64,000 bases of DNA, taken from IMG/VR virus record IMGVR_UViG_3300025648_000015, positions 52,146-116,145 of that record. One strand, 5' to 3'. This document shows positions 30,771 to 63,108 of the stretch, piece by piece. A model generated the notes under the pieces. That model was not told the DNA's origin. It saw only the letters and a program-made list of their open reading frames with translations, and did no database searches. The first letter of the stretch is position 1; each line of letters opens with the position of its first letter. The position numbers and the translations under genes are program-made. This DNA comes from a virus.

Positions 30771-31880
30771 ATGGCTAAAGATGCTATTGAATCATTAATT
30801 AAAGAACTTAATAAGTTCACTCCTGAAGGTAGCACTAAGCCCATTGCTTTCCGTGGTAATAACATTGAGCGCATTAATGCTATCCCTACATTCACTCCAG
30901 CATTGTCTTACTTGCTTGCAGTTGGTGGATGGCCAGAAGGTAAACTAATCGAGTTCTTTGGCAAGGAACACTCAGGTAAAAGTTCATTCGCTTTGATGGC
31001 ATTGAAAGATTGCTATGACTACTACAAGGGTGAGAAGCTTGTTGCTTATGTAGACCTAGAACACCGTTTTAATCCTGAATGGGCTGAGAAGCTTGGGCTA
31101 AAGGTAGACGAAAGCCTTATCGTTGTGCAACCACCAGATGCTGAAACAGGAACTGACATGATGGTTAGCCTAATTAAGTCAAAAGAAGTTTGTGCAATCG
31201 TATGGGATTCGACTGGTGCTGCAGCTACAAAACATAGCATGCAACAACTTACTGATAAAAATGATCGCATGGGTGGCAACGCTGCAGTGATGAAACGCAA
31301 CGTCCAAACTGTTGCTCCATTAGCTAACCTTTATGGTGTGACTTGTTTCTACCTTAACCAACTTCGTGCAGACATGGATGGATACAACCGACCTATGACT
31401 CCAGGTGGCCACGCAGTAAAACACGCTATGTCAGTACGTATATATTTACGCCCTGGTAGTGACAAATACTTTGACAAAATTAATGGTGAGAATGTACAAG
31501 TTGGTTTCCCTGTTGTTATGAAGACAGTAAAAAATAGTTACGGTCCTCCATTCCGTGAAGGTTGGACTGATTTCTATAATCAGCCAAATGTATTTCTAGA
31601 TCACCCAGGTGTTGACACTAAACGTGATCTTGCTCGTATGGGTATCCTTTTAGGTGTAGCACAACGTGCCGGTGCATGGTTTTCTTGGAAAGATATCAAG
31701 GCACAGGGTCGTGACTCATTTTTTGATCAGATTTGGGAAAGTGGACGTGGTGCAGAGTTTGAAGCAGAAATCGTTGCTGCTATCAAAAAGGGTTCAAGTT
31801 TTGCTGAGGTAGAACAAGATGAATTCTTTGGTCGACCTTTGACCGTAGACAGCGATGACGTTAACGATCCGGACGTGTGA
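30771..31880 (+). CDS. recA: RecA-like recombinase
   Basis: GG.PEG..IE.FG.E.SGKS, DLEH, QP...E, DS, NQLR, TPGG.A.KH, G.WF. Confidence 0.93.
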   Translation: MAKDAIESLIKELNKFTPEGSTKPIAFRGNNIERINAIPTFTPALSYLLAVGGWPEGKLIEFFGKEHSGKSSFALMALKDCYDYYKGEKLVAYVDLEHRFNPEWAEKLGLKVDESLIVVQPPDAETGTDMMVSLIKSKEVCAIVWDSTGAAATKHSMQQLTDKNDRMGGNAAVMKRNVQTVAPLANLYGVTCFYLNQLRADMDGYNRPMTPGGHAVKHAMSVRIYLRPGSDKYFDKINGENVQVGFPVVMKTVKNSYGPPFREGWTDFYNQPNVFLDHPGVDTKRDLARMGILLGVAQRAGAWFSWKDIKAQGRDSFFDQIWESGRGAEFEAEIVAAIKKGSSFAEVEQDEFFGRPLTVDSDDVNDPDV

Positions 31881-48514: not shown

Positions 48515-48712
48515 CTATTGTAAAACATGTGCTTCTATATACCAGATTTCACCATTGGGTAAAATAGTTTCCCAAAATCCCATAGTGTCCTCATGTTCTT
48601 GCCATCCTTCTAAATTCAAAGCATTCTTTGCTGCATCTAAGTTAGAATAAATGCCAGAGATTTCGGCAGCGCCATCTCCAACATCATATAGTAGGGCGTA
48701 TACTATTGTCAT
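48515..48712 (-). CDS. Hypothetical protein
   Basis: Operonic. Confidence 0.6.
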   Translation of the reverse strand: MTIVYALLYDVGDGAAEISGIYSNLDAAKNALNLEGWQEHEDTMGFWETILPNGEIWYIEAHVLQ

Positions 48713-49004
48713 TGTTAAATAACTCCTTCATTGCCCATTCTATACGTTCTTTAGCATCCATGCCACCCCACCAGCCTTCGTCTAGGTTGCGCACTGCTTC
48801 GTACCTACATTCCATCATAACAGGACAATCTTTGCATATATTTTTGAGCTTGTGACGTTGGCTTAATGTAGGCATAGAACTAGCATAAATAAAATCACTA
48901 GTGTTTTTACCATAACAATTGCCTTCTTCTGCCCAAGTAAGGCCTTTATTATCGGGTAAAGTTTGAACTAACTCTTTTAACTTCCACCTACTAATCTTAC
49001 TCAT
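48684..49004 (-). CDS. whiB: Second WhiB-family regulator
   Basis: W....NC......F...IC.DCPV..EC...A......GWWGG....ER. Confidence 0.85.
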   Translation of the reverse strand: MSKISRWKLKELVQTLPDNKGLTWAEEGNCYGKNTSDFIYASSMPTLSQRHKLKNICKDCPVMMECRYEAVRNLDEGWWGGMDAKERIEWAMKELFNNDNSIRPTI

Positions 49005-49692: not shown

Positions 49693-49711
49693 AGTATTAC
49701 CTCCTTTCTTT

Positions 49712-49773
49712 TAGTCTAGCCTCATCGGTGTAGAGACAACTACCTTCTACATACGCCTCACGGCGTTTCGGCT
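49712..49773 (-). ncRNA. Hammerhead ribozyme HH1 (type II, U4C core variant)
   Basis: AGCC-GAAA-CGCC(GTGA)GGCG-TA^TGTAGA(AGGTAGTTGTC)TCTACA-CCGATGA-GGCT; loop TAGTT can pair with downstream GACTA. Confidence 0.85.
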
Positions 49774-49776
49774 TTA

Positions 49777-50019
49777 TTATAAAGCGTCTTTTAAATCACA
49801 GAATAACTTATGAAAATGATCCATTTGTTCTCCCATTGCATTGATTGCTTTATTAAACATATCTGATAAACTTTCATAAAAAGTGATATCAAGAGTGTTT
49901 TTGTTTTCGTTATAGATTTTAAACCCATTTAACAACTCATCTAAACGATAACCAATCGTAGAAATATTGTTGATAAGTTCGCTTACTTTCTCTAACTTTT
50001 CTTCATTACTTACTGTCAT
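49777..50019 (-). CDS. Hypothetical protein
   Basis: Stop 4 nt before HH1. Confidence 0.6.
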   Translation of the reverse strand: MTVSNEEKLEKVSELINNISTIGYRLDELLNGFKIYNENKNTLDITFYESLSDMFNKAINAMGEQMDHFHKLFCDLKDAL

Positions 50020-50260
50020 ATTACCTAACTTAAATATTTAATGCAACCAATTTAAAATTAATGTTTCATACTTACTATTTTACCTCCATAGGTTTATATT
50101 CACTACAATATGTCTCAAACTTGTTTTTACGAGTCCAAGATCCACATTCACGGCATTCTCCAGACTCTAAATCTTCAAATTCTGGATTCTGACTAATGTT
50201 CCATAAATGTGCTTCATATTCATGATCGCACCAACAATCTGGTTCATTCATATTTGCTCC

Positions 50261-50467
50261 TTACTTGATATTATCTAATGCATTATTAAGTATTTCAGTT
50301 ATTTCTTTTTCTTTATCTCCTGTTTCTGTATTTTGATCAGGAAAAACCCATTCATCAATATTAGGAATGTAAACAGTTTTACCTTTTTCAAATTTAGCAA
50401 AAGTAGTAGGCCAATCTATAAGCCAACCATTTTCTTCTGACCATTTTACTACACAATGATATTCCAT
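50261..50467 (-). CDS. Hypothetical protein
   Basis: Operonic. Confidence 0.6.
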   Translation of the reverse strand: MEYHCVVKWSEENGWLIDWPTTFAKFEKGKTVYIPNIDEWVFPDQNTETGDKEKEITEILNNALDNIK

Positions 50468-50792
50468 TATGTTTCCATTTCTATAATTATTTCTTCTAGT
50501 TGATTACAACGATCTAATAAATTAGATATAACATCTTTAGCTTCTGCTAATGTAGTTGGTTCTGTTAAACCAAAGTCATTTAATGTTAATTCTATCATTA
50601 TTAATTAAATCCATAATGCTCAAAGATTTGAGCTCTAGCATCTTCAAGTTCATTATTGAGGTCTTGCAATGTACGATTATCAATACTCTTATCATTACCA
50701 AACCAATCAATTAGATCTTGTCTAGTTACTTCATTCATTTTACTCCTTCTCTCTTATATTTGCTACTATGCGTAATGCTTCTGTTCCTTACT

Positions 50793-50853
50793 ATTAGCCT
50801 ATCTTATCAATGCATGGTGGCTAATCCATACAGACGCCTCCCGGCGTTTCGAT
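50793..50853 (-). ncRNA. Hammerhead ribozyme HH2 (type II, U3-A8 covariant core)
   Basis: ATC-GAAA-CGCC(GGGA)GGCG-TC^TGTATGG(ATTAGCCA)CCATGCA-TTGATAA-GAT; 7-bp pseudoknot ATTAGCC/GGCTAAT. Confidence 0.88.
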
Positions 50854-50859
50854 TCTTTA

Positions 50860-51042
50860 CTATTCTATTTCCTCAATAATTATATCATTGATAGTATTTT
50901 TAATAGCAAATCCATTGTGTTCTAACCATCCCAATGCTTCTTTTTCAATTACATCGTCATCTTCAGAGTCAGATGTAATCGTAGTTATGAGCACAGCATA
51001 GTCAAACACAAACTGTACATTATATATATATGTTTTACTCAT
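50860..51042 (-). CDS. Hypothetical protein (cassette gene between the direct repeats)
   Basis: SD AAGGAG lies inside the repeat. Confidence 0.65.
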   Translation of the reverse strand: MSKTYIYNVQFVFDYAVLITTITSDSEDDDVIEKEALGWLEHNGFAIKNTINDIIIEEIE

Positions 51043-51199
51043 TCTCCTTCTCTCTTATATTTGCTACTATGCGTAATGCTTCTGCAAATCCTTGAGCAAA
51101 TCCATTCTCAAAATCAGTTTGCTTAGCCATTGCTAAGTTAATGTGATGACGAGTTTCATTACTCAATTGATAAAAAGATTTGTCTAATTTTTTACCCAT
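51035..51199 (-). CDS. Hypothetical protein (54 aa, not in track)
   Basis: MGKKLDK...AEALRIVANIREKENE; its 3' end is the duplicated 41 bp. Confidence 0.6.
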   Translation of the reverse strand: MGKKLDKSFYQLSNETRHHINLAMAKQTDFENGFAQGFAEALRIVANIREKENE

Positions 51200-51201
51200 T
51201 A

Positions 51202-51618
51202 TTATTCCTTTGTTGTAACTAAACTATTAAGATAAATAAATACCTCAAAAGGTACTGGCTCTAGTTCCCAATTCCATACAACATCGTCTTCGTTGTAGTT
51301 TTGCCAGTCAACTTTATCATAGTTAACTACCTTAATACCAACAGTTTGGTCAATGTGATTTACAACAACTAACTTCCATGTATCACCATGAAGAGAAAGT
51401 CCGATACCATATCCAGTATCAGACATTACATCATCTTTAATCATTTCACTGAAGATAATACGGTTAAGGTATTCGTCATCACTCCAACGACCCTTGCCAC
51501 GTACTATAGCGTCAGCTACAACGTTTTCTAGATGACTAGCTCCCCAATGGGTATATAGATAGATAGAATGCTCTGATCCATATGTACCAATAAGTTGTAC
51601 TTGTCCACGGTCTCCCAT
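51202..51618 (-). CDS. Conserved phage hypothetical protein (MGDR...YLYTHW.G family)
   Basis: MGDRG, IYLYTHWG, RW.D..YL.RII, TGYGI. Confidence 0.7.
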   Translation of the reverse strand: MGDRGQVQLIGTYGSEHSIYLYTHWGASHLENVVADAIVRGKGRWSDDEYLNRIIFSEMIKDDVMSDTGYGIGLSLHGDTWKLVVVNHIDQTVGIKVVNYDKVDWQNYNEDDVVWNWELEPVPFEVFIYLNSLVTTKE

Positions 51619-51672
51619 GATTACCTACTTTCTTACTTGTTTGTTTATTTGTTTAACGTCTCCCGACGTAGT

Positions 51673-51713
51673 GCCTTGAGTAGGAGTCGAACCTACTCTA
51701 CGACCATCAAGGC
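51673..51713 (-). ncRNA. Anticodon-less tRNA mimic TL1, followed by a GGGA hairpin (51656-51669)
   Basis: GCCTT-GATGGTCGTA-GAGTAGG-TTCGACT-CCTACTC-AAGGC. Confidence 0.8.
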
Positions 51714-51719
51714 TACCAT

Positions 51720-52103
51720 TTACCACCAACTATCGTAATATATTTCCATATCTTGTCCAATAGCTTTCATAGCATCATCAATAAACTTAAGGTCAATTTC
51801 TCTATCTTCTGGTAAACTTTCACCAAAGAAAAAACCTTGAGTTACTGGGAGTTTTTCATGTATTACAGCATGTCTTAAATTAACAAGGTCTTGAAATGTT
51901 ACTCGAACTGGTTGACAGTTAAAAACACCTTCTCCACCTTTACTTTCATATAACTTTTCCATCCAACCTTGAATGTTAGGATGTTTACGCCATTGAGCAA
52001 TTAAAAAGACTTTATCTTCAGATTGTTCATGAGTCCAAACATAACTTAAATCTGTATTGTTTGGATGAGGCATAACAGCATATGCATATTGGTCTAATCC
52101 CAT
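51720..52103 (-). CDS. Conserved phage protein (MGLD.Y...WRK.....W...Y.SWW family)
   Basis: MGLDQY, WRKHPNIQGW, FNC, LP.T.GFFFG, YYDSWW. Confidence 0.75.
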   Translation of the reverse strand: MGLDQYAYAVMPHPNNTDLSYVWTHEQSEDKVFLIAQWRKHPNIQGWMEKLYESKGGEGVFNCQPVRVTFQDLVNLRHAVIHEKLPVTQGFFFGESLPEDREIDLKFIDDAMKAIGQDMEIYYDSWW

Positions 52104-52153
52104 TATGTTTCCTTTCTTACTTATTTATTTACTTGTTTGTGTCTCCCGACAGC

Positions 52154-52194
52154 ACCCCAAGATAGAATCGAACTATCTTACAACCATTTGGGGT
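52154..52194 (-). ncRNA. Anticodon-less tRNA mimic TL2, followed by a GGGA hairpin (52140-52151)
   Basis: ACCCCA-AATGGTTGTA-AGATAG-TTCGATT-CTATCT-TGGGGT. Confidence 0.8.
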
Positions 52195-52202
52195 TACCTT
52201 AG

Positions 52203-52859: not shown

Positions 52860-52886
52860 ATTATCTCACTTTCTTTTTCTTACTAT

Positions 52887-52946
52887 TGACCTATCTCATC
52901 AGTGCATGGAGGTCATCCCATACATACCCCTCCCGGGGTTATCGAC
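52887..52946 (-). ncRNA. Hammerhead ribozyme HH3 (type II, GAUAA insertion variant)
   Basis: GTC-GATAA-CCCC(GGGA)GGGG-TA^TGTATGG(GATGACCT)CCATGCA-CTGATGA-GAT; pseudoknot TGACCT/AGGTCA. Confidence 0.88.
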
Positions 52947-52949
52947 TAA

Positions 52950-53723: not shown

Positions 53724-53784
53724 TGACTTGTCTCATCAGTACCCAAGTTGTCATCTTAGGTATACCCCTCACGGGGTTATCGAC
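53724..53784 (-). ncRNA. Hammerhead ribozyme HH4 (type II, GAUAA insertion variant)
   Basis: GTC-GATAA-CCCC(GTGA)GGGG-TA^TACCTAAG(ATGACAA)CTTGGGTA-CTGATGA-GAC; pseudoknot TGAC/GTCA. Confidence 0.88.
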
Positions 53785-54182
53785 TAACGATAATGTCTAT
53801 ATATTTTTGTATCATAAGATTCATCAAAATCTGGTTGTTCAGGAGATGGTGCTCCTTGCCATTCAGATAAAGTCTTAAGAAACCATGTTTCTGCTGCTGC
53901 ATCATCTTTACCATAAAAAACATAGCATAATGTTAACACAGCATCAACTGCTTCTTTAGCTATCCAACTACTTGTAAACTCCCTGGTCAAAAGTATTTCT
54001 TTCTTTTTTGTACCAGGAATAGGACGCATTACTTGTAATATAGCATTATGATTCATAAGATTACTTTGTACGCCTGCTTTTAATGATAAATATAAATTAA
54101 CATTAGTTCTATAATAAACAGTAGTCTTACAATTCCATGATACTTCATCACGAGAACGACGCCAATTAACTTGTCTTGACAT
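53784..54182 (-). CDS. Hypothetical protein
   Basis: Its TAG stop overlaps the first base of HH4. Confidence 0.65.
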   Translation of the reverse strand: MSRQVNWRRSRDEVSWNCKTTVYYRTNVNLYLSLKAGVQSNLMNHNAILQVMRPIPGTKKKEILLTREFTSSWIAKEAVDAVLTLCYVFYGKDDAAAETWFLKTLSEWQGAPSPEQPDFDESYDTKIYRHYR

Positions 54183-62856: not shown

Positions 62857-63108
62857 GCTCCTTGTTTTTCTTACTTGTGTATTTGATGTTGCAAGGCATG
62901 GTCCTTAGTTGTACTAACTATATGAGATAGTCCAAAGAAGTTCATAACCTTTTTGTCTATTCGACGCAAGCATCAAAGTAAGGCGTAAAATAGGGAGACA
63001 GATTTTTGCCTTTTCCAGAAACAAAGGGTTTTAGATGGGACCCCTATTGTAGGGAAAAGGTGCCTTAAAAAAAATGGCGGGGACCCCTTGGGGCATTTTT
63101 AGAAACAT

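Follow-up and report, generated by a model that had tools for sequence, protein, structure and literature searches.

A 41-bp direct repeat around a small gene and a hammerhead-like RNA in an uncultured freshwater phage: probable seam of an illegitimate DNA join

Genomic organization of the repeat locus

The DNA analyzed here is a stretch of 64,000 nucleotides (nt), hereafter called the window, which forms the right-hand 64 kb of the 116,145-bp IMG/VR virus record IMGVR_UViG_3300025648_000015 (completeness estimate, 79%). Within this window, a perfect 41-nt direct repeat encloses one small gene, g60, and one hammerhead-like RNA element, HH2. All genes from approximately position 62900 down to 48224 of the window are encoded on the minus strand, including a WhiB-family gene at 48684-49004. 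Read along the minus strand, the locus contains g138, g54 (with repeat copy 1), g60, HH2, an A-rich leader, repeat copy 2, and g45, with the following coordinates. Open reading frames (ORFs) are given with their length in amino acids (aa), and SD denotes the Shine-Dalgarno sequence.

g138, 51618-51202, minus strand: gene preceding g54
g54, 51035..51199, minus strand: 54-aa gene, conserved in at least 24 viral contigs
Repeat copy 1, 51044..51084, minus strand: native last 13 codons of g54 (..EALRIVANIREKE), with the SD core GGAG at its end
g60, 50860..51042, minus strand: 60-aa acidic ORFan, protein-coding part of the putatively inserted module
HH2, 50793..50853, minus strand: type II hammerhead-like RNA with a U3-A8 core variant, labeled on its anatomy
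Leader remnant of HH2, 50784..50792, minus strand: 9 nt, A-rich, AGTAAGGAA, reaching up to the putative illegitimate joint
Repeat copy 2, 50743..50783, minus strand: non-coding relic of the g54 3' end, carrying the SD used by g45
g45, 50601..50738, minus strand: 45-aa gene, putative original downstream neighbor of g54; other genes take its place in the related contig L003

The host phage is an uncultured freshwater actinobacterial phage. A distant homologue of g138 occurs in 36 GenBank phage records, all of them actinobacteriophages and mostly Streptomyces phages of ~130 kb, and the locus is present in 24 sequencing runs, each of which is a freshwater metagenome. At the nucleotide level, a BLASTn query of 49700-52200 against GenBank phages returned zero matches. 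A Pfam search with ten of the larger neighboring ORFs gave a single result, an AAA_5 ATPase, and the label "early region" given to this part of the genome by the original prediction is thus an inference made there.

The repeat consists of one coding and one non-coding copy

The two copies (50743-50783 and 51044-51084) are 100% identical, with a start-to-start distance of 301 bp. The whole record holds exactly two copies of the 41-mer, which is its longest exact direct repeat (the runner-up measures 23 nt). No third copy was found when up to three mismatches were allowed, and 100 dinucleotide shuffles yielded zero matches. This bears out the perfect repeat described originally, as well as its content of one 60-aa gene and one hammerhead, the latter identified by anatomy. 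The original prediction also took the perfect identity as a sign of a recent event, which is a weak argument given that it is based on 41 sites.

Copy 1 is coding. The ATG of g60 lies 1 nt past its end, and two further g54 codons (NE*) overlap the g60 start. The last codons of g54 are homologous in its relatives (viral contigs L013, L014, and L015), and the C-terminal codons ...AEALRIVA... are common to the g54 homologues of 24 viral loci. Since the homologues share these codons, copy 1 represents native coding sequence. Over the 41 positions, L013 differs at four and L014 at two. No Pfam or PHROG matches were obtained for g54.

Copy 2, in contrast, is a relic of that coding sequence, as had been proposed. 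Reading the sequence directly, a TAA closes the g54 frame three codons upstream and a start codon is absent; the copy is therefore non-coding. The ATG of g45 is located 4 nt beyond it. In folding, the copy 2 region is unstructured with its SD exposed, and the 41-mer itself lacks significant structure (fold z-score, -0.4). On the coding strand, no promoter-like or terminator-like site was found in either copy. In addition, no inverted repeat was found at the borders of the unit, either as an attC-like imperfect palindrome or as terminal inverted repeats, and no other cassette bounded by the 41-mer was found in the record or in the contigs of relatives that were compared. The left end of copy 2 falls at an arbitrary point within the g54 codons.

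The enclosed gene is rare. Among IMG/VR and JGI metagenome contigs, homologues of g60 were recovered from L003 only, and in a set of 5.8 billion proteins they form just two clusters, both on contigs of ~1 kb. One of these clusters, P0002, has a different N terminus (MITYNVQF versus MSKTYIYNVQF). This difference tentatively suggests that the first codons of g60 in the window may themselves be a recombination product. A (TA)5 tract at 51021-51031, together with the shorter P0002 N terminus, points to a variable g60 start.

HH2 resembles a type II hammerhead

The putative hammerhead HH2 consists of GAA, a 5-bp stem III with a GGGA loop and an A-U closing pair, a GUC cut site, a 7-bp stem I, the core UUGAUAA, and a 3-bp open stem II, and a 7-bp pseudoknot pairs loop I with the 3' tail. 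Cleavage is predicted between 50833 and 50832, and stems I and III were recovered by folding. With a covariation in the core allowed for, these parts agree with the type II layout of a three-stem junction, G12-A13-A14, an A15.1-U16.1 pair, an H17 cut site, a CUGANGA core, and a tertiary contact joining stems I and II. At positions 3 and 8, which pair with each other, the core differs from CUGAUGA (C3-G8 to U3-A8). This U3-A8 pair is a natural covariation earlier shown to be active (Perreault et al. 2011, PMC3088659). The Rfam hammerhead models did not report HH2 even at an E value of ≤10 when the 171-nt segment 50730-50900 was searched, and HH2 misses the gathering score of RF02276. For this reason, we call HH2 a hammerhead by its anatomy only.

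The same operon contains three more hammerhead-like elements and several tRNA-like minihelices. A pattern sweep with loose pairing returned four hammerhead-like elements, including the site at position 53782 of the window. The sister element at 52885-52947 reaches 24 bits in Rfam, against a gathering score of 37. Both this element and the one at 53733-53790 (minus strand) show GAUAA instead of GAAA, with an extra U between A13 and A14, and the element at 49700-49760 has the core CCGAUGA, with a C at position 4. The textbook core is found in none of the four elements of this operon.

Relatives carry both junction types separately

The gene that follows g54 differs between lineages. It is g60 in the window and in L003, a zinc-ribbon-like gene in L013, g45 in L014, a g127 homologue in L015-L017, and several others elsewhere. 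The insert formed by g60 and HH2 was not found in the records that hold L013, L014, L015, and L019.

In L014, the site is empty: g54 ends in ...EEE* and GGAGTAAAATG runs straight into the g45 homologue, with GGAG and TAA followed by the AATG that opens this gene. A relative with a single copy and the same junction, which the original prediction had suggested looking for, therefore exists. The context of copy 2 aligns to L014 without gaps from the first bases of the repeat (CA) through g45 (81/91 identical), and the sequences upstream are unrelated. The SD of g45 and its 4-nt spacing are the same in copy 2 and in L014. The junction of copy 1, on the other hand, is the type found in L013, in which GGAG is followed by AATGAGTAAAACAT. 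This sequence opens the zinc-ribbon gene in L013 and g60 in the window, such that the first 13 nt of g60 (ATGAGTAAAACAT) equal the start of a different gene. As copy 2 is a gene fragment still joined to g45, an intact g54-g45 arrangement must, judging from these alignments, have preceded the present one; L014 illustrates that such an arrangement exists.

A relic-free allele places the joint at the left edge of copy 2

Logan contigs (k = 31) of four runs were compared with positions 50400-51500. Two of these runs, X23 and X24, contain a 182-nt contig carrying HH2 with three differences and without the g54 relic. One of the differences, at 50841, replaces the GGGA loop of stem III by GUGA, so that a GNRA loop is retained. 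Past the hammerhead tail, the contig reads ...GTAAGGAACA and then TAAATGGAAAAGACATTT, comprising an ordinary SD, a 6-nt spacer, TAAATG, and a gene that starts with MEKTF. This allele departs from the window exactly at 50783/50784, which is the left edge of copy 2, and has its loose ends at 50795. Its depths are 6 and 10.2, compared to 10.7 and 16.1 for the window allele.

At the joint, g54 reads ...TTTGCA/GAAGC (the slash marking the joint), and the two partners have CA alone in common. A shared stretch of 2 nt is the signature of an illegitimate, microhomology-level join. Since CA is present in both partners, the duplication derived from g54 proper amounts to 39-41 nt. Exact searches of viral contigs with the loose-end 30-mer of X23/X24 and with a 38-nt stretch of HH2 revealed nothing new.

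Junctions of g54 of the type seen in contig L005 also occur in runs X9 and X24, and this co-occurrence indicates that differently arranged relatives can meet in one host. In X23/X24, the unitig over g60 branches at 51049, inside copy 1, which suggests a further allele with a slightly different, L013-like g54 tail (GAGGAGGAG) before g60.

The repeat-bearing block was exchanged between two phages

L003, a 99.7-kb contig from a different metagenome assembly, shares synteny with the window. Over most of the region, the proteins of the two are 31-76% identical, but g138, g54, and g60 reach 98-100%. The genes are part of a shared block:

g138-g54-g60-HH2-relic block, 50742..51618, minus strand: 877 bp, 99.4% identical to L003:6447-7322

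Five differences were counted over 51619-50742 and none from 51160 to 50742, whereas the flanks are ~71% identical. The block starts between the SD of g138 and its ATG and ends right after copy 2, beyond which L003 has a different 62-aa gene and a WhiB-like gene instead of g45. A near-identical block amid such divergent flanks shows that the repeat-bearing block was recently transferred between two distinct phages, with both crossovers situated in SD-to-ATG spacers. The gene adjoining the block, g127 (52103-51720), shows an intermediate identity of ~91% to L003.

Comparison of relatives also confirms that single small genes are gained and lost as cassettes in this region, as originally proposed. 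Between L013 and L014 (3160-3560 in each), a 159-bp g45 cassette differs cleanly, starting right after the GGAG of g54, and a second clean indel comprises a 54-aa ORF present in L013 and absent from L014. A further 117-aa gene, followed by a leader of its own, is found in L003. These nearby indels have clean borders after the SD and no long repeat. The L013/L014 indels occur without the 41-mer, but the replacement between the window and L003 begins right after copy 2. Among the leaders of the minus strand between 48200 and 63000, there are 14 exact repeats of at least 13 nt, against ~2 in shuffles. Such shared 13- to 15-mers, for example ACAAGTAAGAAAG, could act as short boundary homologies for cassette exchange.

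A comparable pattern is seen in L031, L032, and L035, which are distant and richer in GC. Here, the g54 homologue is closely followed by a series of three small ORFs (L031:3499-3853), which all end in ...CGEKL* and share 21-28 nt of identical boundary sequence (SD GGAGAG, then ATGA, with start/stop overlap); the first 10 nt are also the same in two of the genes that come next. These boundaries hint at a recurrent duplication of gene boundaries within this group of phages, apparently by the same process, unless the tails are the ends of paralogous zinc-knuckle proteins.

The repeat is probably the by-product of an illegitimate join

Taken together, these observations make it probable that the repeat is the seam of an illegitimate (microhomology-level) DNA recombination event within a hyperplastic block of small genes. 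Both the order of events and the single-crossover mechanism given here are what we infer from the junctions. One parent would have carried g54 ending in ...KE* and leading straight into g45, with the last g54 codons doubling as the ribosome-binding region of g45. The other parent would have had g54 followed by g60, HH2, an A-rich leader, and another gene. A crossover between such sister or near-identical genomes would have fused the leader immediately downstream of HH2 with g54, 39-41 nt short of the end of that gene. In the product, an intact g54 (copy 1) would be followed by g60, HH2, and copy 2, the cut-off tail of g54 from which g45 takes its SD and spacing. The relic may have persisted because it is closed by stop codons, unstructured, and harmless. 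At a later stage, the whole 0.88-kb block was swapped between two lineages that are otherwise ~70% identical.

The original prediction had the unit inserted by recombination at the repeat. Insertion itself agrees with the empty site of L014; the role of the repeat as the recombination site is not supported, given the arbitrary left end of copy 2 and the mere CA at the joint. An end placed arbitrarily within codons makes the repeat a product of the insertion and not its prerequisite. It is a by-product of the join and not its cause, because it has only two copies, no promoter, terminator, or fold, and because other cassettes move without the 41-mer.

Several points weigh against this seam scenario. 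The order in L014 is also exactly what excision at the repeat would yield and, because of this, cannot be polarized as ancestral. The relic-free allele is known only from one 182-nt contig, in which 30 loose letters are visible. A single crossover cannot be told apart from an insertion by two crossovers or from a replicative switch of template, either of which would leave the same product. Finally, the perfect identity of the copies must reflect either near-identical parents or gene conversion or ongoing recombination, and the latter would suit an actively recombining cassette.

Evaluation of alternative origins

The first alternative complements the seam model. It is conceivable, albeit tentative, that the relic was kept by selection since g45 needs its native 40-nt upstream region for translation once HH2 intervenes; the duplication would then resolve the overlap between a coding end and a ribosome-binding region. 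Consistent with this idea, copy 2 preserves the exact SD and 4-nt spacing that g45 has in L014, in an unstructured stretch that leaves the SD exposed, and it extends the leader from pseudoknot to ATG to 54 nt, where other hammerheads are followed by about 15-27 nt. However, the same relic drives a different downstream gene in L003, and g45 of L005 has an unrelated upstream sequence, which implies that g45 does not need this leader.

Second, the repeat could define an active cassette, in which homologous recombination at the 41-bp repeats excises and re-inserts g60 and HH2 as a 301-bp DNA circle, in the manner of the PeSL cassettes discussed below. The phage encodes a RecA-family protein (window 30783-31571, plus strand; PF00154, 120 bits), which is the sole recombination enzyme found in the record; in searches of these 116 kb, tyrosine recombinase (PF00589), serine recombinase, RecT, and ERF were not found, although at 79% completeness their absence is not absolute. 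The minimal homology quoted for RecA and Red is ~30 bp (PMC2327257), so with 41 identical bp a precise 301-bp deletion is expected at some frequency. By such a deletion, we infer, the phage RecA could recreate a g54-g45 junction of the L014 type, and L014 indeed has the order predicted for the excised product. Moreover, g60 and HH2 precede three different downstream genes (in the window, in L003, and in the X23/X24 allele), the small ORFs of L031, L032, and L035 share identical boundaries of 21-28 nt, and mini-circles formed from flanking regulatory repeats have been documented for RB49/phi1 (PMC2839356). Against this, the 41-mer has two copies only and bounds no other cassette, the relic-free allele and the L013/L014 indel represent cassettes that move without it, and the arbitrary left end of copy 2 makes the repeat an outcome of the insertion. 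We therefore consider an active cassette unlikely. A broader version, which we regard as similarly unlikely, holds that the unit is one of a set of self-contained units of gene plus RNA processing, in which the ribozyme insulates each mRNA, and that the repeat renders this particular unit reversibly excisable by RecA, so that natural populations would be polymorphic for its presence and contain DNA mini-circles. If true, such units, which could be placed almost anywhere in an operon, would parallel the promoter-based PeSL cassettes at the level of RNA processing.

Third, the structure could be an assembly artefact, namely, a chimeric de Bruijn path through co-occurring related phages. Related alleles do co-occur, as L005-type g54 junctions and variant HH2 sequences are present among runs X9, X23, and X24. 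Nevertheless, the same two copies with the same spacing are found in the independently assembled contig L003, that is, in two assemblies of two phages with flanks of ~71% identity. In addition, Logan unitigs from the four freshwater runs, two of which were not flagged as possible sources, support all four junctions between repeat and unique sequence. The Logan pieces split at the 41-mer (50400-50772, 50754-51073, 51044-51084, and 51055-51500). One 320-nt unitig begins within copy 2, spans HH2 and g60, and ends within copy 1; other unitigs cover the outer junctions. The junctions from HH2 to the relic and from the g54 tail to g60 are unique sequence and so lie on real molecules. The structure is thus taken as real, and an artefact is very unlikely. 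Read depths in X9 are 46.8/46.6 for the flanks, 37.5 for the middle, and 65.5 for the repeat; in X1, they are 12.5/10.4, 17.6, and 20.9, respectively. These values match no consistent mixture of alleles, and we base no conclusion on them.

Fourth, a mobility through RNA, in which a processed RNA is ligated or circularized and copied back to DNA in the manner of retrozymes, was raised in the original prediction and appears extremely improbable: its sole attraction is the self-cleaving type of RNA inside the unit, whereas the 79%-complete record revealed no reverse transcriptase (RVT_1), Rnl-type RNA ligase, or RtcB, the predicted cut at 50833/50832 lies inside the unit and off its borders, one ribozyme alone cannot free a unit-length RNA, and borders consisting of an SD core and a CA microhomology are typical of DNA joints.

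A transposon was ruled out, as the ends of the unit lack terminal inverted repeats and the 41-bp "target duplication" is unmatched; we know of no transposase that makes a target duplication of this length. A homing-endonuclease cassette was likewise ruled out, since neither a nuclease domain nor any other Pfam domain was found in g60.

Comparison with known systems

The closest published analogue comes from another group of actinobacteriophages and consists of genes 67 and 68 of mycobacteriophage Island3. Gene 68 has no counterpart in Brujita, and in Island3 it is flanked by near-identical 3' ends of ~50 bp, which belong to genes 67 and 68 themselves (Pope et al. 2011, PMC3029335). Its authors proposed recombination between the ~50-bp sequences by general enzymes, either as an intramolecular deletion or as an intermolecular insertion (PMC3029335). 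As in Island3, the locus described here has a small extra gene, missing from a close relative, between copies of the 3' end of the upstream gene; also in keeping with this type are the single-copy relative (L014), a donor-type context (X23/X24), and the lack of any site-specific recombinase or transposase among the genes found. The two cases differ in the second copy, which in Island3 is in frame and forms the C terminus of the inserted gene, whereas copy 2 is non-coding, lies behind HH2, and provides only a leader and SD. Beyond what is seen for Island3, a relic-free allele of donor type was observed here.

In the PeSL (promoter-early stem-loop) cassettes of the T4-type phages RB49 and phi1, the ORFan content of hyperplastic regions changes between close relatives by gain, loss, or replacement, and these changes occur where regulatory sequences near the SD and ATG are repeated (Arbiol et al. 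2010, PMC2839356; Comeau et al. 2014, PMC4122927). The crossovers were located to the interval from the -10 box to the SD or ATG, and mini-circles produced by excision were observed (PMC2839356). Cassette joints in SD-to-ATG spacers are a shared feature. However, a PeSL is a multi-copy element of early promoter, stem-loop, and SD, whereas the 41-mer is a two-copy gene fragment without promoter or terminator.

Multiple type II hammerheads of prophages, whose loop I forms a pseudoknot with the 3' tail, are situated between genes or short blocks of variable identity (Perreault et al. 2011, PMC3088659). In contrast to our locus, no repeat-bounded units of gene and ribozyme and no insertion scars were described for them, and HH2 falls below the Rfam thresholds.

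More generally, the mosaicism of phage genomes is modeled as illegitimate or short-homology recombination (reviewed in PMC3029335; homeologous exchange was tested in PMC2327257). The blocks of 90-100% identity within genomes of ~50-70% identity, with joints near gene boundaries and rare remnants inside genes, conform to this model. There is no difference in principle, apart from the fact that both parental junction types were recovered here. The locus is therefore a well-resolved but fairly ordinary case of phage gene shuffling, with no new mobility mechanism. Its value lies in an unusually complete record of one mosaic joint, in which the product, the empty site, the second junction type, and the relic-free allele are all available, some of them from the same lake samples, and the crossover is placed to a 2-nt microhomology. 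This supports the notion that actinobacterial phages remodel their small-gene regions through DNA joints made nearly at random, with the surviving joints being those just after an SD or otherwise sparing translation signals. A modest additional point is that HH2 and the gene upstream of it move together, as seen in at least three downstream contexts, which matters for how ribozyme-punctuated phage operons are assembled.

Two other mobile units invite comparison on structural grounds. Integron cassettes are promoterless single-gene units with a structured attC at the 3' end, and in plant retrozymes hammerhead-bearing repeats bound the mobile unit. Unlike the former, the present unit has no attC-like palindrome at its borders and no PF00589 integrase was found in the record. 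Unlike the latter, the hammerhead is positioned between the repeats instead of inside them, and the record yielded no reverse transcriptase.

Minor observations in the small-gene region

The 58-aa protein encoded at 50075-50251 of the window is 96% identical to the product of the ORF at L013:3972-4154, with neighbors at 37-60%. This gene looks like another recently exchanged single-gene cassette. By eye, a promoter-like site (TTGACA, 17 nt, TATAGT) is visible in intergenic sequence at L013:3505-3560, after the extra 54-aa ORF, and it is also present in L014.

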